Assembly (NCBI GenBank): GCA_030147745.1
Contig: JASBUS010000042.1
Coordinates: 10,836-74,835, forward strand
Source: Alphaproteobacteria bacterium
GTDB taxonomy: Bacteria > Pseudomonadota > Alphaproteobacteria > Micavibrionales > Micavibrionaceae
DNA length: 64,000 nucleotides
Reading direction: 5' to 3'
The notes below the pieces were generated by a model. It searched no databases. It saw only the letters and a program-made list of their open reading frames with translations, and was not told the origin of the DNA. This document shows, in pieces, positions 10,166 through 52,442 of the stretch (within the stretch, counting starts at the first letter, position 1; each line of letters starts with the position of its first letter). Both the position numbers and the translations under genes were made by a program.

Positions 10166-10789
10166 ATGGGTAGACCATCACAAGGCACAAGAGAAAAGCT
10201 GATTGAAACTGCGCGCGAATTGATTTGGCGCGAAAGTTATAATGCGGTCAGCGTTGACGAGATTTGTAAAAAAGCTGACGTTAAAAAAGGCAGCTTTTAT
10301 CACTATTTCCCATCTAAGGCCGACCTTGCGGTCGAGGCGATGGATGCGGGTATGCAGGAAATGAAAGAATATTATGATGATATTTTTTCACCAACCCGCC
10401 CTGCGACAGAACGTTTTAGCCTTATGGCACGCCATGTTGTTGAGCATCAACGCGAAATTGCCACTGAATATGGTCATGTTTGTGGCTGTCCTTTCGCGGG
10501 TTTAGGCTCTGAAGTTGCGGGGCAGAATGAGATTATCTCCGAAAAAATCACCGATATTTGTGTCAAGAAATCGGCTTATTATACCAGTGCGCTGCGCGCG
10601 TTAATTGCCGAAGGTTTGGTTGACCCAATGATGGATGTCGAAGCCAAGGCCAATGAAATATTTGCCTTCATTGTTGGGCAATTGGTGATGGCGAAAATCT
10701 GGAATGATCTCGATTTTCTTGAAAAGAATTTGGAACGCGGCGTATTCGACCTAATTGGTTTGCGTATGCCCGTGAGCAAAGCGGTTTAA
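10166..10789 (+). CDS. TetR/AcrR-family transcriptional regulator
   Basis: N-terminal HTH (VSVDEICKKADVKKGSFYHYFPSKADL), 207 aa, immediately upstream of the RND operon. Confidence 0.85.
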   Translation: MGRPSQGTREKLIETARELIWRESYNAVSVDEICKKADVKKGSFYHYFPSKADLAVEAMDAGMQEMKEYYDDIFSPTRPATERFSLMARHVVEHQREIATEYGHVCGCPFAGLGSEVAGQNEIISEKITDICVKKSAYYTSALRALIAEGLVDPMMDVEAKANEIFAFIVGQLVMAKIWNDLDFLEKNLERGVFDLIGLRMPVSKAV

Positions 10790-35474: not shown

Positions 35475-35508
35475 ATAAAAAAGGCGCTATTTTTAGCGCC
35501 TTTTTTTA
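35475..35508. terminator. Bidirectional intrinsic terminator (serves the ecn-like gene on the minus strand)
   Basis: AGGCGCTA-tttt-TAGCGCCT flanked by an A-run and a T-run. Confidence 0.75.
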
Positions 35509-35509
35509 A

Positions 35510-35641
35510 TTATTTTGTCGCGTCCTGAATTTTCGCGCCAGCTTTTTCAATATCTTGTCCCACGCCGTGGAAAGTGTTGCTGCATGCGCTGACAGATAAT
35601 GTCAAAATTGCCGCCGTTGCCAATAGGCCAAATGTTTTCAT
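35510..35641 (-). CDS. Entericidin EcnA/B-family small lipoprotein (43 aa; absent from the supplied ORF track)
   Basis: The minus strand encodes MKTFGLLATAAILTLSVSACSNTFHGVGQDIEKAGAKIQDATK. It has lipobox LSVSAC, the Ecn-like GxGxDIxxAGxxI tail, a GGAG RBS, and a candidate promoter TTGTCA-N18-TAAAAT upstream. Confidence 0.75.
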   Translation of the reverse strand: MKTFGLLATAAILTLSVSACSNTFHGVGQDIEKAGAKIQDATK

Positions 35642-35751
35642 CTTAAACTCCATTTAATTCATACCAGATTAGATTTCGTATCGAATTCCATCAATCTGCC
35701 AAATTTTAACGTGTGATCATGTCATTTGACAATTTGTTTTTTAGCGCGCGC

Positions 35752-36132
35752 TTAAAAACTTGGTTTATGCGTGCTGCTTTGATCTGCTTGCACATTACGT
35801 TCAACCGCTTGGATGGTTTTGCGTCTATCCCAAGCTTTCTTCGCAGCAGCAATAGCAAAAAGACTAACGAGCCCTACGCTGGCTATCGGTGCATCCGCAA
35901 TGGTGCTGTTTTCGTTTTGTACCCAATTTATAGCGTCGTTCGCTTTTATAAGAGCAATACCCCCAGCAAGAATGGCAAATGTTTGTGCATTATTGCTTTG
36001 GATTTTTGCTTTATAGTGATCCATAATCAATGCATTTTGGTCTGCATCATATGTGCAGCGGATTTGATCCATTGTGCAGGCGCTGTTCTGGTTAAAGTAA
36101 TTAATCGCGTGATTGTATTCTTCTTTACTCAT
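35752..36132 (-). CDS. Uncharacterised two-TM small protein, paralogue 1 of 3
   Basis: 126 aa, GGGAGA RBS. It shares MSxxxYxxA(V/I)xYFN..T.D.I.YTYD...N.LI, two hydrophobic spans and the C-terminal motif K/QAVERxV with the two upstream genes. Confidence 0.7.
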   Translation of the reverse strand: MSKEEYNHAINYFNQNSACTMDQIRCTYDADQNALIMDHYKAKIQSNNAQTFAILAGGIALIKANDAINWVQNENSTIADAPIASVGLVSLFAIAAAKKAWDRRKTIQAVERNVQADQSSTHKPSF

Positions 36133-36155
36133 TTTATTCTCCCTTTTTTATCTAT

Positions 36156-36533
36156 TTACATCACAATGTTATTTTTTGATGCTTTATCGGCAGAGACATT
36201 GCGTTCAACCGCTTTGATCGCGCGTCTTTTATTGGCGATGTGATATGCAACGCCAATGCCGAATATCGCCATGAAACCAAGGCTCCAATCTGGACCATGT
36301 TGGCTCCAATTGTCTTTTTCAAGCGCTTCATAGGTGCTGCTTACGGCAAATACGCCCGCGATTGCTAGGCCAGTAGCACTTTCCAGTGTTTCTTTTTGGT
36401 GATGTTCAGCATCTTTGTGTAGCTTGATCAGCATATTCTTATCCGCATCATAGGTGTAACGGATTTGATCCATGGTGTATTGGCTTGCTTGGTTAAAATA
36501 ATTAACGGCACCATCGTATTTTGCTTCGCTCAT
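36156..36533 (-). CDS. Uncharacterised two-TM small protein, paralogue 2 of 3
   Basis: I chose the internal ATG (MSEAKYDGAVNYFNQ...) because it aligns with the paralogue N-termini, has an AAGGA RBS, and removes the overlap with the upstream gene. Confidence 0.7.
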   Translation of the reverse strand: MSEAKYDGAVNYFNQASQYTMDQIRYTYDADKNMLIKLHKDAEHHQKETLESATGLAIAGVFAVSSTYEALEKDNWSQHGPDWSLGFMAIFGIGVAYHIANKRRAIKAVERNVSADKASKNNIVM

Positions 36534-36543
36534 GATTTGATCC

Positions 36544-36930
36544 TTACATGACGGGTGTTGTTTGTTTGCGTGGTGTGTTTGCAACTTCGCGCTCCACGGC
36601 TTTGCAGATCTTTTTAGTCGCGCGAACTGCGCCATAAGTTAGAAACCCAAAAACTAAAGAGAGCCCAACTGAAATATCTGGCATAGCTTCTTTTGCTGCG
36701 GCCTCATCTGGCGCGGTATATACGTTATGGAAGCTGTTGAGCATGATTGTGCCTGAAATAGCGGCGCCGATAAAACATATTGCGCCACCAGCAAGGTCGC
36801 CTTGGGTCTCGTTATAATGTTTTATCAAAATATTTTTCTGATTATCATAGGTATAGCTGATGTCATCGGCAGTACAGTTTGTTTGGCCGTTAAAAAAAGT
36901 GACTGCATCATCGTAACTAGTTTCTGACAT
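36544..36930 (-). CDS. Uncharacterised two-TM small protein, paralogue 3 of 3
   Basis: 128 aa, GGGAG RBS, MSETSYDDAVTFFNGQTNCTADDISYTYDNQKNILI ... KAVEREV. Confidence 0.7.
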   Translation of the reverse strand: MSETSYDDAVTFFNGQTNCTADDISYTYDNQKNILIKHYNETQGDLAGGAICFIGAAISGTIMLNSFHNVYTAPDEAAAKEAMPDISVGLSLVFGFLTYGAVRATKKICKAVEREVANTPRKQTTPVM

Positions 36931-36964
36931 TTTTGGCTCCCTTTATGTTATTATTGAACCGCCA

Positions 36965-36993
36965 CATTTAGACATAATCAGTGCAAGAGTCAA
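36965..36993 (-). promoter_or_regulatory. Sigma-70-like promoter for the three-paralogue cluster
   Basis: The minus strand reads TTGACT-17 nt-TAAATG, about 35 nt upstream of the paralogue 3 start and immediately after the nrdB terminator. Confidence 0.5.
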
Positions 36994-37020
36994 TAAAAAA
37001 AACCGCCAAAAATTGACGGC
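36994..37020 (-). terminator. Intrinsic terminator after nrdB
   Basis: The minus strand reads GCCGTCAA-ttt-TTGGCGG (one mismatch) followed by 9 T. Confidence 0.65.
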
Positions 37021-37042
37021 TTTTTATTAGATAAGTTAAATG

Positions 37043-41719: not shown

Positions 41720-42016
41720 ATGAGTTCACCACATGACGCACAAGAACAGGTAAATTGGCACTGGCGCAATACAACACGCCCAATGCGCTTTTTTAGCATG
41801 GATTCTCGAGCGGCTTTGCCTTATTTGATTTTGCTGCCTTATGCGCGCCCAATTAGTTTGGCGTTTTGCGTGATTTCGACCATTATTTTCGTGATCTTGG
41901 AAAAACATGGTTTGACCTTCCCATCGGCTTTGCGTGCGTTGCGCCACACTATGGTGGGGGAAAAACGTTATGCATTGGCACGTATTCGCCGCCGCCGTAT
42001 GCGCGACCTTGGCTAA
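41720..42016 (+). CDS. icmT: IcmT/TraK-family protein (Dot/Icm type IVB secretion inner-membrane component)
   Basis: 98 aa. HWRNTTRPMRFFSMDSRAALP, then a TM helix, then FVILEKHGLTFPSALRALRHTMVG. This matches the IcmT pattern HWRDSAR..RFF..DARAAFP ... LE+FGFT as I remember it. Confidence 0.7.
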   Translation: MSSPHDAQEQVNWHWRNTTRPMRFFSMDSRAALPYLILLPYARPISLAFCVISTIIFVILEKHGLTFPSALRALRHTMVGEKRYALARIRRRRMRDLG

Positions 42017-44930: not shown

Positions 44931-44978
44931 GCGGTAGGTAGTTTTTTAATGGCGGTAGCCGTTTGTGAGGAGAATATA

Positions 44979-47900
44979 ATGACCAATCAATCAATCAACG
45001 CAGAGTTTACACAATCTGACGTACAAGAAATAAGACTCGGCAATCAAAATATGCTTGAGATTATTTTGAACGATGGCACGGTGGTTGGTTATAGCGACCT
45101 TGATTTTTCAGGTTCAGCGCAAAGCTTCATTATTTTCAGCGACGGTAAAGCGATTGAGATTTCATCTCTGGTTGATACGCTAAACGCAGGTCAGTCATGG
45201 ACGACAGCGCAAATCACCGAAATGCAGGTTATTGGCGCCCCAGAAGGCATGGTTGAAAACTACGTTGTGGCTGAAGGCGGCGTATTAAAACTTGATGTTG
45301 ATCTCTCTCACGCAAAAATCACAAAACAAGGCGAAGAACTTACAATTGATATGGGCGAACAAGGCTCAGTCGTTATTTCGGGTGCTGAAGGCATCGAAGC
45401 TATTCAATTGGCGAGCGGCGTTGTTGTAAATCTTGATGTTCTTTTGGCGAATGCTTTCGCAGAAGAAATGGTTGCAGAAGTTGAACCACAAGCCCCAACA
45501 ATGGATAGCGCAGCTGAAGAATTTGCGGCTGTTGAGCCTGCGGCAGGCGATATCGCTGAACAACTCGCGACAATTGAACCGGCGGCTGGTGAGGGCGCAG
45601 CGCCTGGTGCACGTGGCGGTTATGGCTTTAGCTCTGTATTCTCATCTGAACAAGTTGCGCCATTGAACGAAATTGGCCCGATTGCACCAACAGCATTGCA
45701 ATATGGCATTGAATATTCTCAAGACCGCGTACTTCCACAAGAAGACGCGCCAGAGCGTTTGGTGACGCCACCAGAATTTGGCCCAAGCGAAGAGCTTGTT
45801 AACGAGATTCCAGCGCAGCCAACAACATTAAATGGCACATTGCCAGTATTCTTTGATTCAGATGGTTTTGGTTCAATCGCACCAAGCACAGCAGGTTTCT
45901 CTGCATCTGGTTCACTTGCGGGCGGCACATTAACATCATTAGGCGAAGCGGTTATCGTAACAGCGACAGCAAATGGTTATGAAGGCGCAACAGTAGGCGG
46001 CCGTACAGTATTCACAATCACTTTTGATAACCAAGGTGATTACAGCTTCGTTATTTATGATGGTATTGACCACGCAGACCCAACAAACCCAACAGATGTA
46101 ATTACACTTGAATTCGGCATCACAGCGGTTGATGGCGCGGGTGATACAGCATCTGGCACATTCACAATCGACGTGATCGACAGCGTTCCAGTCGCGGCAG
46201 ATGATCACGTATCAATGACACCATTCACGGACTTGGATGTTGATGGTAACGTTATCACAGGCCTTAACACAGGCGGTGCAGATACAGATAGTGATGACAT
46301 CACATCAACAGTGACAAATGTTGACGGTACAACAGTTATCGGCGCGACAACAATTAACGGTACATATGGTACTTTGGTCATTAACGCAGATGGCTCATTT
46401 GATTACACCTTGTTGAATAACTGGGATGTACTTGCGGGCGTTGATTACAGTGTTAGCAAAACATATGATTTCGACACATTCACATATACATATACAGACG
46501 CCGACGGCGATAGCGATACGGCGACATTAAGCTTTGATGGTTATGTCGCAGCACTTCCACCGCCAACAGCTGAGCCAAATGCAGTAACTGTGACAGAAGA
46601 TCTTGATCAAGTTACAGGCAAAGTAAAAATTATCTCTGATGATAACTCTATTTTGGCACATAGCCCGAATGGCGATATCACATCAGTCGCATATAACGGC
46701 ACATATTCAAGCAATGTTGGCACGCTAACATCAAATGGTTCACTTGTGACCATCGCGCAAACAGCCACTGGCCTTGTTGGTACAAACGCAACAGGCGAAA
46801 CAGTGTTTGATATCGTGATCACAAATAATGCAGGTATTTACGAATATACATATACTCAATACGCAACATTGGATCACCAAGAAGGCGGCGCATCTGATGA
46901 CCAGATGAGCATTGAATTCGGCATCACAATCACTGACGAATACGGCCTAACAGTTGATAGCAAAATCACAGCTTATGTGAATGATGATAATCCTGATGCG
47001 GTTAACGATGCGGCGACATTGGCGGATGGTCAAAACTTGATCACTGGCGATGTAACAGATAACGACCTATTCAGCGCGGATGCAGATAACCTTGTGACAG
47101 GTTATGTTGTTGCTGGTACATACGGTAACTTCACAGTAGATGCAGATGGTAACTACAGCTACGCCCTATACAACAACTGGGCTGACCTTGCGGGTGTTGA
47201 TTACACAACAAACGGTACATATACGCTTGATACATTCTCTTACGCGCTTGTTGATGGCGATGGCGACCAAGACATCGCAACAATTACATTCAACAAAGAC
47301 TTCAACAAACTGCCAAACCCTGAAGCCGCACCTTCAGAAGTAACAGTGACAGAAGACGCGCCACTTGGCTTTGATCATGCAGCAGGAACTGTTCATATCA
47401 TTTCAGCTTCTAATACGTTATCAATCACTAGCCCAAATGGTGAAATTACCTCAGTTGAATATAATGGTGTTTATGGTGAGAATAATGTTGGCGGCTTGTT
47501 CTCAAATGGATCTCCAGTAACGGTGACAGCAAAAGGTGGCGCTCCGCTTCCTCCACCATTTGGAGGAATTGAGCAATATGGTTTTGTTGGTAAGGATGCT
47601 GCTGGGCAGAAAGTGTTTGAGCTGTCTTTTTATAAAAATGCAGCAGGCGAATTTGAATATTTGTATACTCAATGGGCGCCACTTGATCATGAAGAAGGCC
47701 TAGCCTCTGATGATAAAATGATCATGGACTTCGGTGTGACAATCACTGATGAGTTCGGTCTTAGCACATCAACAAAAGTTACAGTGAACGTTATTGATGA
47801 TAACCCACTTGCTAACGCAGATAGTGCACAGCTTTCAGACACTGAAACATCTATCAGTGGTGACGTAACAACAAACGACCATTTCAGCGTTGATGCGTCA

Positions 47901-50900
47901 AACACAGTATCTGCAGGCTCAAGCCTTACAGGTACATATGGTGACCTAACAATCTTCGCAAATGGTTCATATACATATACATTGCATGCGAATTGGGCGA
48001 CAACAGCAGGCGTTGATTACAGCGTTGGCGGTACATTCACATTAGATACGTTTAAATACATCCTTACAGATGGCGATGGCGATACATCAGAGACAACACT
48101 TGATTTCTCTAAAATCGTTGATGCGCTTAACCCACCAACATTGGAAGCAACAGATAAAGTTCTTCACGAAGAGCGTAATGCTGACCCAAGCACATCTGGT
48201 GACCTAAGCGTGACAGGCGCGAATGGCGGCGTGGATAAGATTGAATTCACAGGTACATTCAATGCATCAGGTTCATTGGAAGGTGGCGTGCTATCTTACA
48301 AAGGTACAGCGATCACAACATCATATTCTGGCAATACTTACACAGGTATGGCGGGCACAGTGAAAGTGTTTGAACTAACACTTAACCCAACAACACAAAA
48401 ATATGAATTCACATTGTTTGAAACTTTGGATCACGAAGTTGAAAATGTTGCAGATGACATCACATTGTCTTTCGAAGTGAAAGTGACTGATGATTTCGGT
48501 TTGAGCGCGACAGACACAATTGATGTGAAAATCGTTGATGACCTGCCAGTAGCTGTTGATGACAGCGCAACATTGGCGGATGACAAAACAAGCATCACAG
48601 GCAATGTTTTGACAAACGACCAAGCAACATTCAGTGCGGATGATGACAACCTTGCTATCGCGAAAACATATACAGGCACTTATGGCGACATGACGCTGTA
48701 TGCGAATGGTTCATATACTTATACATTGCACGCGAACTGGGCGACAACAGCGGGTGTTGATTATGCAGCAGGCGGCAAATATACGCTTGATACATTCGAA
48801 TACACGTTGATTGATGGCGATACAGACACTGACACAGCCAATATTGAATTCTTCAAAATGGTTGATGCTTTGAATGCGCCAACAATTTCTGGTGTAGATA
48901 AAGAGCTTGTAGAGCTTCGTAATGCCGATCCATCAGTAAGCGGCGATATCACAGTAACGGGCGCAAATGGTGGTGTTGCTTCTCTTGAATTGGTTGATGG
49001 TACATTCGCAGCCTCTGGTTCACTAGAAAACGGTGCCTTCACATTCCAAGGCACACCGATTGTTACAACGCTTGTTGGTGATACCTTCACAGGTATGGCT
49101 GGCGCGGTTAAAGTGTTTGAATTGACACTTGACCCAACAACAGCAGATTACACATTCACATTATTCGAAACATTTGATCATGAAGTTGTTGGCGCAGCTG
49201 ACGAAATCACAGTGTCTTTCGATGTGAAAGTAACTGACGGTTACGGCTTTACAGCAACAGACACAATCAATGTTGATGTGATCGACTCACTTCCAGATGC
49301 AAAGAACGATGCAAAAACATTGGCAGATGGTCAGAACACAGTTTCTGGTAATGCCCTTGCAAATGACGTGTTGAGCGCGGATAACGACAATTCAGTCAGC
49401 AGCGCAGGCGTATTGAACGGTACTTATGGTCAGTTGGTGATTGATGCCAATGGTGATTATACATACACACTTTATGCGAACTGGGATAATGGTCTTGATT
49501 ACAGCAAAAACCACAGCTTGAAAGACACATTCCAATATACATTAATTGACGGTGATGATGACACAGATAAAGCAAATATCGTGATCACGAAACAAGTGAA
49601 CGCACTTGATAAGCCAGAGATCGATGTTGAAGATAACTGTGTAACAGAAGACCTTCCAATGGGCCCTGTGGTTTCAGGTAATTTGAACATTACAGATGCA
49701 AATGGCGGCATTAAATCAATTACGCCAGTTGATGGTACATTCTCATTCTCTGGTTCTTCAACAGCGCCAACATTGTCACATAATGGCGTGGCAATCACAG
49801 TCGCAGTTGTTGGTAACAGCTTCGTTGGTACAGCGGGCGCGGTTACAGTGTTTGAATTGGAAATTGACCCAGCAACACAAAGCTACACATTTGAATTGTT
49901 TGAAACACTCGATCACGCAGATGTAAATTCAGCGGATGTAATTAACCTATCTTTCGATGTGAAAGTAACTGATAATTACGACTTGAGCGCAACAGACACA
50001 ATTGACATCTGTATCATTGATGATCGTCCAATCGCAAATGATGACATGATCGAAATTGATGCGGGTCTTACAGACACAGCAACAGGCAATGTTGTGACAT
50101 CAAATGATGAACTAAGTGCGGACCTTGATAACACAGTGACATCTGTGAAATTCGAAGGCGTTAGCTACGATGTGCCAACATCTGGTGACTTGGTGATTGA
50201 CGGTAACTACGGTCAATTAACTATCGATGCAACAGGTGATTACACATATGTTCTTCGTGATGACATCATGACGAAAGAAACAACATATACATTCTCAACA
50301 GATAACCCTCCAGGCAGCGATGCAGGCGGCGACATCAAGAATGTAACAACAACATATAACGAAGATACGCATGAATTCACATTCCAAATGACAATTGCGG
50401 ACCCTTATGGTCGTACGACTGAAGGCTTCACATTGGCATTGAATGATGGCCCGAACCCTAAAGGTTCAGGTGAATTGGCGCTATTCTACTTTGATGCATC
50501 TTCAACAAATGCGTCTCCAGTTGTCTCTGCTTATGCTTATAACGGCCAAAACACACAAACAAGCTGGAAAGACGGTTCATCTGAAGCAGGTATCCAAGCG
50601 GCAGATCAAATCGCGTCATCACTTGGTGCGAACAGCCCGTTCTCATCTATCACAGCGACGATTGATGCGAATGGTAACCATGTTTACAGCTTCACATTGA
50701 ATGCTGATTTCATCCAAAACCACGTGCCAACATATGGCGACGCAGCGGATTGGACGGGTCTTGGTTTCGACCAAAATCTAGGCATTTGGTTGCACCCAGT
50801 GGCAGATATCGTGACAAAATATGACGCGGATGGTTACCTCACACAGTGGGATACATGTGCGCAAGGTTGGTACGATGCAAGCAACCTAACAACAACTGTG

Positions 50901-52442
50901 ACAACAACATGCACAGGCTGTGTTGGCGATGTCTTTGAATATACATTGACAGACAGCGACGGCGACAGCGATACAGCGCAGCTTGCGATCAAGTCTTGCT
51001 TCCCTAAATTCTTGGTGGGTGAGAATGTTGATGATATCGCGGGTGAAGACACTTACTACGCCGTTGGTGGTGAAAATGGTGTAATCACTGGCTCACATGC
51101 TTCTGATGTATTGGTTGGTGATGTTGGTGGCTCAACATATATCCCACCGCAGCCACAGGATTATAACTTTGTATTGATCCTTGATACTTCAGGCTCTATG
51201 GGTGCGAAAACAGGATCAACACGCCTAAGCAAGTTGATTGCAGCGGTCGAAAGCTTGGCTGATGATTTGGCAGCATATGATAACGGCGCAATCCGTGTGC
51301 ATATCGTTCCATTCGGGAATACAGCGCGCGGCACAGCAACATTCGATATTACTGACCAAGCAAGTGCAGATGCATTGGTTGATTGGTTGATGAATGACAT
51401 GCAAATTGGCGGCGTGACTAACTACGAATCAGCGTTACAAAGCGCGATTAACTGGTTGGAAACACCAAATGCAGCTTTGGGTGGTTCAGCTGAAACTTAC
51501 ACATATTTCATCTCTGATGGTGAACCAAATGCTTATGTGAACGCATCGGGCGGCACTGGTAGCGGTACAGCGAACGCAGTTGGTGAATATACAGGCAGCG
51601 ATGGCACAGATGAAGCATCTACAATCAAAGCATTGAGCACAGAAGTGATCGGCGTTGGTATTCAGCTTGGCACAACAGCATTGAGCCGTATTGACCTGAT
51701 CGATTCAGATGGTAGCTCTTTGAACATCACGAACCCTGATGATTTGACTGCAGCCCTAAAAGATTCAAACCCATTGACTGGCTTAACAGGCGTTGGTGGC
51801 GATGTAATCAATGGTGGCGCAGGCGAAGACATCATCTTCGGTGATAGCTTGAACACAGATATTTTGGCATTGCTTGAAGGTCTTGGTACAACGAAAGGTG
51901 CTGGCTGGGATGTATTCGCCCGTTTAGAAAACGGCGAAGGCACAACAGCAGATTGGGATCGTGACGATACATTGGCTTACATTAAAGCAAATGCAGAAGA
52001 ATTGGCTGAAGAAACACAGCTTGCTTCTGGCGGCACACGCAGCGGCGGTGATGACGTGATCACAGGCGGCGCAGGTGATGATTTGATCTTCGGTCAAGAA
52101 GGTGATGATGTTATCTCTGGCGGCGCAGGCAACAATGTTCTTTACGGCGGCAGCGGTAATGACACATTCTTGTTCGAGGCGATCACAGACGGCGTTGACG
52201 ACATTATGGATTTCACAGTTGGTGAAGACGTGCTTGATCTATCGCAATTGGTATCAATCACAGATCCACTAACACAATCTATTGAAGACTTTGTCTTCGC
52301 AAATGACAACGGCTCAGGTGGCACAACGCTTTCTGTCGATACCAGCGGCAGCGGCAATGTGAATAACGCTACAGCTATTGCAAATCTTGACGGTGTGGAC
52401 GTTGAATTGAGCGACCTTATCGCAAGCTTGCTTGTCGCATAA
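44979..52442 (+). CDS. Giant LapA/BapA-like repeat adhesin: N-terminal module, Ala/Glu/Pro linker, six VCBS/cadherin-like repeat units, VWA domain, RTX repeats, and a type I secretion C-terminal signal
   Basis: I chose the start at MTNQS because GAGGAG lies upstream; the ORF opens at 44949. There is no signal peptide. The repeated blocks are (V/I)DDxPxAxxD...GTYGxLxxxAxGxYTYTL...DTFxYTLxDGDGD. The MIDAS motif is ILDTSGSMG, and GGAGDDLIFGQEGDDVISGGAGNNVLYGGSGNDTF follows. Confidence 0.9.
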   Translation: MTNQSINAEFTQSDVQEIRLGNQNMLEIILNDGTVVGYSDLDFSGSAQSFIIFSDGKAIEISSLVDTLNAGQSWTTAQITEMQVIGAPEGMVENYVVAEGGVLKLDVDLSHAKITKQGEELTIDMGEQGSVVISGAEGIEAIQLASGVVVNLDVLLANAFAEEMVAEVEPQAPTMDSAAEEFAAVEPAAGDIAEQLATIEPAAGEGAAPGARGGYGFSSVFSSEQVAPLNEIGPIAPTALQYGIEYSQDRVLPQEDAPERLVTPPEFGPSEELVNEIPAQPTTLNGTLPVFFDSDGFGSIAPSTAGFSASGSLAGGTLTSLGEAVIVTATANGYEGATVGGRTVFTITFDNQGDYSFVIYDGIDHADPTNPTDVITLEFGITAVDGAGDTASGTFTIDVIDSVPVAADDHVSMTPFTDLDVDGNVITGLNTGGADTDSDDITSTVTNVDGTTVIGATTINGTYGTLVINADGSFDYTLLNNWDVLAGVDYSVSKTYDFDTFTYTYTDADGDSDTATLSFDGYVAALPPPTAEPNAVTVTEDLDQVTGKVKIISDDNSILAHSPNGDITSVAYNGTYSSNVGTLTSNGSLVTIAQTATGLVGTNATGETVFDIVITNNAGIYEYTYTQYATLDHQEGGASDDQMSIEFGITITDEYGLTVDSKITAYVNDDNPDAVNDAATLADGQNLITGDVTDNDLFSADADNLVTGYVVAGTYGNFTVDADGNYSYALYNNWADLAGVDYTTNGTYTLDTFSYALVDGDGDQDIATITFNKDFNKLPNPEAAPSEVTVTEDAPLGFDHAAGTVHIISASNTLSITSPNGEITSVEYNGVYGENNVGGLFSNGSPVTVTAKGGAPLPPPFGGIEQYGFVGKDAAGQKVFELSFYKNAAGEFEYLYTQWAPLDHEEGLASDDKMIMDFGVTITDEFGLSTSTKVTVNVIDDNPLANADSAQLSDTETSISGDVTTNDHFSVDASNTVSAGSSLTGTYGDLTIFANGSYTYTLHANWATTAGVDYSVGGTFTLDTFKYILTDGDGDTSETTLDFSKIVDALNPPTLEATDKVLHEERNADPSTSGDLSVTGANGGVDKIEFTGTFNASGSLEGGVLSYKGTAITTSYSGNTYTGMAGTVKVFELTLNPTTQKYEFTLFETLDHEVENVADDITLSFEVKVTDDFGLSATDTIDVKIVDDLPVAVDDSATLADDKTSITGNVLTNDQATFSADDDNLAIAKTYTGTYGDMTLYANGSYTYTLHANWATTAGVDYAAGGKYTLDTFEYTLIDGDTDTDTANIEFFKMVDALNAPTISGVDKELVELRNADPSVSGDITVTGANGGVASLELVDGTFAASGSLENGAFTFQGTPIVTTLVGDTFTGMAGAVKVFELTLDPTTADYTFTLFETFDHEVVGAADEITVSFDVKVTDGYGFTATDTINVDVIDSLPDAKNDAKTLADGQNTVSGNALANDVLSADNDNSVSSAGVLNGTYGQLVIDANGDYTYTLYANWDNGLDYSKNHSLKDTFQYTLIDGDDDTDKANIVITKQVNALDKPEIDVEDNCVTEDLPMGPVVSGNLNITDANGGIKSITPVDGTFSFSGSSTAPTLSHNGVAITVAVVGNSFVGTAGAVTVFELEIDPATQSYTFELFETLDHADVNSADVINLSFDVKVTDNYDLSATDTIDICIIDDRPIANDDMIEIDAGLTDTATGNVVTSNDELSADLDNTVTSVKFEGVSYDVPTSGDLVIDGNYGQLTIDATGDYTYVLRDDIMTKETTYTFSTDNPPGSDAGGDIKNVTTTYNEDTHEFTFQMTIADPYGRTTEGFTLALNDGPNPKGSGELALFYFDASSTNASPVVSAYAYNGQNTQTSWKDGSSEAGIQAADQIASSLGANSPFSSITATIDANGNHVYSFTLNADFIQNHVPTYGDAADWTGLGFDQNLGIWLHPVADIVTKYDADGYLTQWDTCAQGWYDASNLTTTVTTTCTGCVGDVFEYTLTDSDGDSDTAQLAIKSCFPKFLVGENVDDIAGEDTYYAVGGENGVITGSHASDVLVGDVGGSTYIPPQPQDYNFVLILDTSGSMGAKTGSTRLSKLIAAVESLADDLAAYDNGAIRVHIVPFGNTARGTATFDITDQASADALVDWLMNDMQIGGVTNYESALQSAINWLETPNAALGGSAETYTYFISDGEPNAYVNASGGTGSGTANAVGEYTGSDGTDEASTIKALSTEVIGVGIQLGTTALSRIDLIDSDGSSLNITNPDDLTAALKDSNPLTGLTGVGGDVINGGAGEDIIFGDSLNTDILALLEGLGTTKGAGWDVFARLENGEGTTADWDRDDTLAYIKANAEELAEETQLASGGTRSGGDDVITGGAGDDLIFGQEGDDVISGGAGNNVLYGGSGNDTFLFEAITDGVDDIMDFTVGEDVLDLSQLVSITDPLTQSIEDFVFANDNGSGGTTLSVDTSGSGNVNNATAIANLDGVDVELSDLIASLLVA
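45800..50300 (+). repeat. Six tandem coding repeat units of roughly 735-815 bp inside the adhesin gene
   Basis: The anchor motifs DxxP(V/D/L/I)Ax(D/N)D recur at about 46180, 46985, 47800, 48540, 49285 and 50020. The units at 47.8-49.3 kb are clearly similar at the DNA level. The outer boundaries are approximate. Confidence 0.7.

Follow-up and report, generated by a model that had tools for sequence, protein, structure and literature searches.

The window analysed here, a 64,000-nucleotide stretch of contig JASBUS010000042.1 from an alphaproteobacterium of the Micavibrionaceae, contains three consecutive genes, P1, P2 and P3, which encode small proteins of one family and lie between nrdB and a gene for an entericidin-family lipoprotein (ecn). 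The coordinates of these genes and of the signals that surround them are given in Table 1.

Table 1. Genes and predicted signals of the P1-P2-P3-ecn locus, in window coordinates (aa, amino acids).
Feature	Position	Strand	Size or sequence	Remarks
nrdB intrinsic terminator	36995..37029	minus	stem-loop followed by 8 U	-13.9 kcal/mol; z -4.39 against shuffles
Unit promoter (predicted)	36965..36993	minus	-35 TTGACT (36993-36988), 17-nt spacer, -10 TAAATG (36970-36965)	
P1 (paralogue 1)	36544-36930	minus	128 aa	most hydrophobic first helix; ancestral type, in every lineage including the single-copy one
P2 (paralogue 2)	36156-36533	minus	125 aa	orthologue in the two-copy lineage L007
P3 (paralogue 3)	35752-36132	minus	126 aa	youngest copy, derived from P2; limited to three-copy lineages
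ecn internal promoter candidate	35703..35732	minus	TTGTCA, 18-nt spacer, TAAAAT	10/12 consensus positions
ecn, entericidin-family lipoprotein	35510..35641	minus	43 aa	lipobox LSVSA-C; 24-residue mature peptide
Unit-ending bidirectional terminator	35477..35506	minus	13-bp stem	-17.7 kcal/mol; z -4.85; 0/200 shuffles as good; common to convergent phoH

Pairwise BLASTP relates each of the three proteins to the other two (P1-P2, 33% identity, E 2e-20; P2-P3, 40%, E 1e-26; P1-P3, 32%, E 1e-12), and their alignment runs from end to end with 26 invariant columns, which include the N-terminal motif and the AVER.V segment of the tail. At the DNA level, direct repeats extend across the triplet at spacings of 401 and 397 nt, with 99 nt at 73% identity and a 47-nt unit that occurs three times. 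A previous reading of this DNA, made from the sequence only, had proposed a tandem triplication of an unrecognised family, and this proposal is borne out by the BLASTP comparisons, by the DNA repeats and by the absence of any match to a curated family, structure or fold. Its counts of residues shared among the first 36 were right as numbers but assigned to the wrong pairs, as P1 and P2 share 20 and P2 and P3 share 24.

The genes are closely packed, with 10 nt between P1 and P2 and 23 nt between P2 and P3. As the sequence-only reading had stated, each of them has a good ribosome-binding site (RBS): GGGAG, AAGGA and GGGAG for P1, P2 and P3, in each case 6-7 nt 5' of the ATG. The true start of P2 is the ATG at 36533, 10 nt past the stop codon of P1 and served by the AAGGA site; the upstream ATG, which would give an open reading frame (ORF) of 159 aa, was rejected. 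An exact copy of P1 is present in NCBI/Logan, where it carries no product name.

We assessed the coding status of the three genes by comparing the minus-strand frames with those of two colinear relatives, L001, which is 96.6% identical to the window at the DNA level, and L006, a metagenome-assembled genome (MAG) named 'Alphaproteobacteria bacterium ARS11', which is about 76% identical. The ratio of nonsynonymous to synonymous substitution rates (dN/dS) in the minus-strand frame is 0.13-0.23 for P1, 0.13-0.21 for P2 and 0.19-0.28 for P3 when the window, L001 and L006 are compared (0.13, 0.13 and 0.28, respectively, between the window and L006). As a reference, ecn gives 0.12-0.15, and nrdB and phoH give 0.03-0.05 in the window-L006 and L001-L006 comparisons, with about 0 for the near-identical window-L001 pair. 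P1, P2 and P3 are under purifying selection. A plus-strand ORF of 176 aa (35713-36243), which the sequence-only reading had named as the competing gene, is split in L006 into pieces of 42-107 aa, and this breakage together with the minus-strand dN/dS indicates that the three minus-strand genes are real and that the antisense ORF is a shadow. The opposite arrangement, with the 176-aa ORF as the gene and the minus-strand frames as its shadows, is favoured by the length of that ORF alone and is already refuted by the comparative data, with minus-strand dS far above dN, RBSs and homologues on the minus strand and an interrupted frame in L006, so that its probability is practically nil.

Distribution and duplication history of the family

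No match for P1, P2 or P3 was obtained in Pfam-A, NCBIfam, PHROG or PADLOC at any family cut-off (0 families for PADLOC). The best sub-threshold scores in these libraries were to Redoxin (E 0.013-0.019, 15 bits against a cut-off of 26.6) and to one PHROG (E 0.0084), and a Pfam search with all 14 members of the family gave scattered matches only, each limited to one or two members. A word-indexed search of 5.8 billion clusters returned 4 proteins; when 1.84 billion representatives were searched exhaustively with an HMMER profile, 13 were returned at E<=1e-3, about 10 of which are true clusters of the family. Three of the 13 are repeat proteins, namely two YD-repeat proteins (P0011 and P0013) and the 1642-aa P0014, and we rejected them as relatives because their significance arises only from summing 8-11 repeats, each of which scores <=10 bits. 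The true members are all unnamed or annotated as 'hypothetical protein', and they originate from Tara Oceans and other marine metagenomes and from alphaproteobacterial MAGs. The most distant of them, P0012, is a singleton located in a different genomic neighborhood. A degenerate-pattern search for carriers recovered one GTDB species representative and two more metagenome contigs, no relative was found among 2.9 million viral contigs, and the family profile gave 0 matches at E<=10 against the PDB sequences. A confident match to a characterised family was thus not found in Pfam, NCBIfam, PHROG, PADLOC, the PDB sequences or by Foldseek (see below), and we conclude that P1-P3 belong to a previously undescribed family restricted to one clade of uncultured marine alphaproteobacteria.

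Two observations made during these searches concern individual sequences. The database gene call for P0003 (145 aa, L005 203-640) runs through a TAG codon, and the ORF read from DNA ends ...HKPTF, like the other copy-3 proteins. Also, a segment of the N-terminal domain (window 36814-36861, P1 residues 24-39, and the same in P2 and P3) reads I-(R/S)-Y-T-Y-D-x-x-x-N-x-L-I-x-x-H, like one unit of a YD/RHS repeat (YTYDANGNMLTQHY), and YD proteins surfaced in the profile search. However, with <=10 bits per repeat, no Pfam RHS_repeat match and helices in the AlphaFold2 models in place of a beta-hairpin, and as a single unit cannot form a YD shell, we regard this as a resemblance only and not as homology.

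Every locus for which DNA is available consists of nrdB, the family gene or genes and the 43-aa ecn gene, with convergent phoH next in most lineages. The order nrdB, one to three copies, ecn is constant in five lineages, whose DNA is ~70-97% identical to that of the window, and the neighbors shared by all lineages are nrdB, ecn, phoH, an ilvA-like gene, a glycosyltransferase gene and PfkB. There is one copy of the family gene in L010, two copies in L007-L009 as well as in L011-L013 and L015, and three copies in the window, L001, L003, L006 and L014. In a neighbor-joining tree the proteins cluster by position and not by genome: the P1 type occurs in all lineages, the P2 type in L007 and the three-copy genomes, and the P3 type, found in three-copy genomes only, branches from P2. 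L011 acquired its additional copy independently, by duplication of the P1 type. The family has therefore expanded by stepwise tandem duplication, from one copy in the deepest lineage to two and then three. In G+C content the locus matches nrdB, and it has been inherited vertically as a stable locus flanked by housekeeping genes.

The younger copies evolve faster. Amino acid identity between the window and L006 is 84% for P1, 61% for P2 and 54% for P3, with 96% for nrdB. In P3, the predicted hairpin region described below (residues 41-97) is only 35% identical to that of its L006 orthologue, with a ratio of nonsynonymous to synonymous differences (pN/pS) of 0.59, and the same part of P1 is 88% identical; this indicates that the putative membrane part of P3 came under relaxed or diversifying selection after duplication. 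Related genomes with one, two and three copies, in which the younger copies are increasingly fast, form a clean natural duplication series. A separate observation concerns the 5' end of copy 3 in L006: its first 92 nt (10404-10495) match the start of window copy 2 (36442-36533) at 83.7% identity, above the ~76% seen genome-wide. This suggests that copies 2 and 3 have undergone gene conversion or exchange in the part that encodes the N-terminal domain.

The transcription unit and its entericidin gene

The sequence-only reading placed a promoter directly after the nrdB terminator, and this holds: the terminator is real (z -4.4), and a hairpin and T-run occur at its position in all six aligned lineages. 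That reading also called the promoter near-consensus, and here its description can be kept only in part. The site is present and gives the unit a promoter of its own that is conserved in six lineages, but the -10 box is far from consensus, with 3/6 matches of TAAATG to TATAAT, and because this box is weak the site was missed by a generic sigma-70 consensus scan. An alternative reading of the -10 box is CTAAAT with a 16-nt spacer, which resembles the CTATAT-type -10 elements reported for some Alphaproteobacteria. In the six lineages (about 70-97% overall DNA identity) TTGAC is invariant and the TAAA core is kept, while the surrounding bases differ, so that the support for this promoter comes from phylogenetic conservation and not from the consensus match. 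No general-stress promoter of the EcfG type (GGAAC-N15-18-CGTT) was seen close to the locus; the window contains this pattern once, as often as chance would predict.

P3 and ecn are separated by a spacer of 110 nt, in which the hairpin lacks both significance (z -1.1) and a U tail. In L010, with one copy, and L011, with two, ecn starts 10 nt past the last family gene, and in L007 the distance is 32 nt. Given this tight spacing, the absence of a significant terminator between P3 and ecn, and the presence of a strong terminator only after ecn, the unit includes ecn. The sequence-only reading had regarded the family genes as a self-contained unit, a description that we replace, since ecn is their constant downstream partner in all five lineages with DNA. 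P1, P2, P3 and ecn are laid out as, and are predicted to form, one four-gene unit that extends from the conserved promoter to the terminator shared with phoH. Within it, both hexamers of the internal promoter candidate and their spacing are kept between the window and L001 on the one hand and L006 and L005 on the other, amid a spacer and downstream sequence that diverge, and ecn therefore probably has a promoter of its own in the three-copy lineages.

A small GC hairpin with a 5' T-run and a 3' A-run is found right past the P3 stop codon (window 35733-35757, minus strand). The stem sequences of the window (AGCGCGCGCT) and of L006 and L005 (AGGCGCAGCCT) differ, but self-complementarity is kept. 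The hairpin does not stand out significantly from shuffled sequences, nor does it have the form of a canonical terminator; a role in RNA processing or stability is possible.

The ecn product matches Pfam PF08085 (E 1.1e-7, 32.1 bits against a cut-off of 23.3) and scores below the NCBIfam EcnB equivalog cut-off; its mature peptide is CSNTFHGVGQDIEKAGAKIQDATK. We looked for a second entericidin gene in the 64-kb window and found none, so ecn is the sole copy there. P1, P2 and P3 are not entericidin lipoproteins themselves, having a hydrophilic MS(E/K)... start, no lipobox and no PF08085 match. Taken as a single descriptive claim, the reality of the family, the paralogy of its copies, their duplication history and the operon with ecn are points on which we are highly confident.

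Predicted membrane hairpin

Proteins of this family begin with a conserved N-terminal domain of ~40 residues that is predicted to be helical, followed by two short Gly/Ala-rich hydrophobic helices and a basic tail. An acidic loop of 6-21 residues joins the two helices, and a basic segment, K-A-V-(E/D)-R-x-V, follows directly after the second. Among 14 non-redundant members, the mean frequency of the most common residue is 0.59 over residues 1-40 and 0.63 over the 13 residues past helix 2, compared with 0.43-0.47 in the helices and loop. Despite this low sequence conservation, the two hydrophobic peaks are found at the same positions in all 16 members.

The helices are short, each with 15-19 uncharged residues among which Gly, Ala and Ser abound, and have a 19-residue Kyte-Doolittle mean of 0.9-1.9 and a summed Hessa insertion free energy (dG) of +0.7 to +8.8 kcal/mol. 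The three transmembrane helices of the lambda S holin (NC_001416), known from experiment and scored with the same script, give 1.4-1.6 and +4.9 to +5.9, and membrane insertion of the family proteins is plausible since their hydrophobicity falls within the lambda S range. The two transmembrane helices proposed in the sequence-only reading are thus present as two hydrophobic stretches, but these are only marginally hydrophobic, with a 19-residue Kyte-Doolittle mean of 1.2-1.9, and their insertion is plausible rather than certain. The loop contains 0-1 Lys/Arg residues and the C-terminal tail 4-8, and from this distribution of charge and from the conservation peaks in the N-terminal domain and tail we infer a helical hairpin in the inner membrane with both termini on the cytoplasmic side (N-in/C-in). 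Such a topology would bring both conserved parts, the N-terminal domain and the tail, together in the cytoplasm.

AlphaFold2 models of P1 and P2 are all-helical with the same boundaries (helices at about 3-16, 21-27, 32-72 and 85-120). Their confidence is poor, with a mean predicted local distance difference test score (pLDDT) of 56.7 and 53.1 from alignments of 14 and 16 sequences, respectively, and is lowest in the hairpin. Foldseek searches with these low-confidence models against PDB and BFVD returned noise only (E>=0.65), the best PDB matches (E 1.3) being generic helical hairpins.

Possible functions and alternatives

Entericidins are widespread small lipoproteins that have been proposed as toxins, envelope-stress factors or vesicle-docking factors. 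In the E. coli ecnAB locus, according to the account of Bishop et al. (1998) given in PMC7296081, the upstream gene encodes the antidote lipoprotein EcnA and the downstream gene the bacteriolytic lipoprotein EcnB. Many bacteria have an ecnB-like gene without the proposed antidote gene ecnA (PMC7296081). One such alphaproteobacterial case is the entericidin homologue Atu8019 of Agrobacterium tumefaciens, which has no lytic activity and a role in vesicle docking, and for which the authors ask what replaces EcnA (PMC7296081). The comparison with Atu8019 concerns the neighboring ecn gene and not the family described here, as no partner with two transmembrane helices is reported for Atu8019. No report of a membrane partner for entericidin turned up in our literature searches.

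Because the single ecn gene is always preceded by family genes, and by analogy with ecnAB, we put first the tentative reading that the family is an inner-membrane partner, antidote or regulator of the entericidin lipoprotein, although we hold it to be possible at best and far from established. According to this reading, P1, P2 and P3 would be anchored in the inner membrane as N-in/C-in hairpins, with the hairpin serving mainly as an anchor and oligomerisation surface. The family genes and ecn would be transcribed together from the conserved promoter as far as the terminator shared with phoH, and the family would act on the ecn lipoprotein as an antidote, regulator or handling factor. It would thereby fill the place that EcnA has relative to EcnB, in an organism with one ecn gene in the 64-kb window and none that is paired.

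The likeness to ecnAB lies in the presence of small genes upstream of an entericidin-family lipoprotein gene within one short unit. The downstream lipoprotein gene has its own promoter-like site here, and E. coli ecnB reportedly has its own promoter as well. In contrast to ecnA, the upstream genes at this locus encode no signal peptide or lipobox and have no EcnA homology (no PF08085 match); their products are three times larger, with a predicted hairpin and cytoplasmic domain, and there is a single entericidin gene. What can be seen here of an EcnAB-type module, as far as sequence goes, is gene order, tight spacing and the internal promoter-like site. The sequence-only reading had also called the proteins immunity-protein-like, a view that would stand only as an analogy with EcnA and EcnB.

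Several points weigh against the entericidin-partner reading. All loci with DNA come from a single clade and share a single syntenic block, which means that their adjacency to ecn counts as one context and not as several independent ones, and the gene downstream of the distant member P0012 (JGI sample 3300056388), visible as a 32-aa partial ORF 52 nt away, could not be read. Co-transcription of the family genes with ecn is deduced from sequence alone. The Hessa dG is positive for every segment and the AlphaFold2 models are poor, which makes membrane insertion uncertain. Further, the prediction places the most conserved parts in the cytoplasm, but a mature entericidin resides in the periplasm or outer membrane, so that direct binding of the lipoprotein would need the poorly conserved loop or helices. 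Finally, since Atu8019 is non-lytic (PMC7296081), a toxin that needs an antidote is not a given.

The broader proposal, that the family represents a new, non-homologous class of inner-membrane antidotes or regulators for entericidin-type lipoproteins which replaces EcnA in bacteria without ecnA, appears to us unlikely. If it were true, the tandem duplications could be understood as tuning of the protection against, or regulation of, a lytic or vesicle-associated lipoprotein, a view that would also cover the independent duplication in L011 and the fast-diverging membrane part of the newest copy. An ecn operon with one to three copies of an otherwise unknown small, predicted membrane protein does provide a concrete candidate for an entericidin partner. 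The weight of this candidate is limited by its confinement to one uncultured marine clade, by the abundance of small orphan membrane proteins in MAGs and by the lack of a sequence-based function.

Nearly as likely as the entericidin-partner reading, and likewise no better than a doubtful possibility, is that P1-P3 are membrane-anchored cytoplasmic adaptor or stress proteins independent of entericidin, whose N-terminal domain and tail bind a cytoplasmic partner, with ecn a mere neighbor in the transcript. This would agree with the concentration of conservation in the predicted cytoplasmic parts, with the free divergence of the hairpin, especially in P3 (35% identity), and with the conserved promoter-like site that ecn has for itself in the three-copy lineages. 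Such proteins can be likened to the tail-anchored E. coli paralogues ElaB, YqjD and YgaM, which hold ribosomes at the membrane. However, P1-P3 have no Pfam match to DUF883 or any other family, their hairpin precedes a tail, an architecture unlike that of a C-terminal anchor, and an independent role does not sit well with the short distance, 10-32 nt, at which ecn is retained downstream in lineages that have fewer copies.

The sequence-only reading had seen a holin-like character in these proteins. In its developed form, this alternative states that oligomers formed through the Gly/Ala faces permeabilise the inner membrane and that ecn is the outer-envelope lytic part, which together would make a chromosomal autolysis or vesicle-release module. 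In small size, in two weakly hydrophobic helices with small-residue stripes, in a basic C-terminal tail and in the predicted N-in/C-in hairpin the family does resemble class II holins (such as phage 21 S68) as well as lambda S, in whose range its hydrophobicity lies, and Entericidin B is described as bacteriolytic (PMC7296081). Against this, there is no lysis cassette or phage context: no endolysin, spanin or phage gene lies within 10 kb in any lineage, the 2.9 million viral contigs contain no relative, and PHROG, PADLOC and viral folds yield no significant match. Nor is a conserved N-terminal domain of 40 residues a feature of holins, and the stable, vertically inherited chromosomal locus, with the G+C content of nrdB, lies between housekeeping genes. 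We therefore consider pore formation improbable and do not retain the holin-like label.

Anti-phage effectors with two transmembrane helices, such as SLATT proteins, were also looked for; PADLOC reported 0 families and no sensor or nucleotide-signalling gene is found among the neighbors. A SLATT-like viral fold match (E 4.1) was discarded as noise.

A small chance also remains, in our estimate, that P1-P3 are not membrane proteins at all and that the Gly/Ala-rich helices make up the core of a small helical bundle, either soluble or peripheral. The summed Hessa dG is positive throughout, the first helix of P2 and P3 spans 15-17 uncharged residues that include Ser, Thr and Asn, and AlphaFold2 shows one long helical hairpin, at low confidence. 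Opposed to this are the two hydrophobic peaks kept in all 16 members, the basic cluster directly past helix 2 and the K/R-poor loop, which follow the positive-inside rule, and the P1-type helices, whose 15-residue Kyte-Doolittle mean reaches 2.1.

Other genes of the window and its relatives were noted in the course of this work. A 98-aa gene (window 41720-42016, plus strand) stands alone between a response-regulator neighborhood and a questin-oxidase-like gene, and its orthologues in L001, L007, L010 and L011 carry a precomputed, unconfirmed tag as PF28014 IcmT_2, a component of Dot/Icm type IVB secretion. A reading of the family as type IV secretion effectors, suggested by its ORFan status and polar C-terminus, was set aside, as it depends on this unconfirmed tag alone. 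In L010 (3749-4351) and L011 (3857-4459), a gene for a 200-aa ankyrin-repeat protein with weak to clear Pfam matches adjoins nrdB and is absent from the window; taken with the unconfirmed IcmT-like tag, this gene might be a sign that the clade lives in association with a host. Lastly, the window contains a giant ORF of 2497 aa (44949-52442, plus strand), whose L001 orthologue matches Cadherin_4, Big_9, VWA_2 and HemolysinCabind, a domain composition that suggests an RTX-type adhesin.

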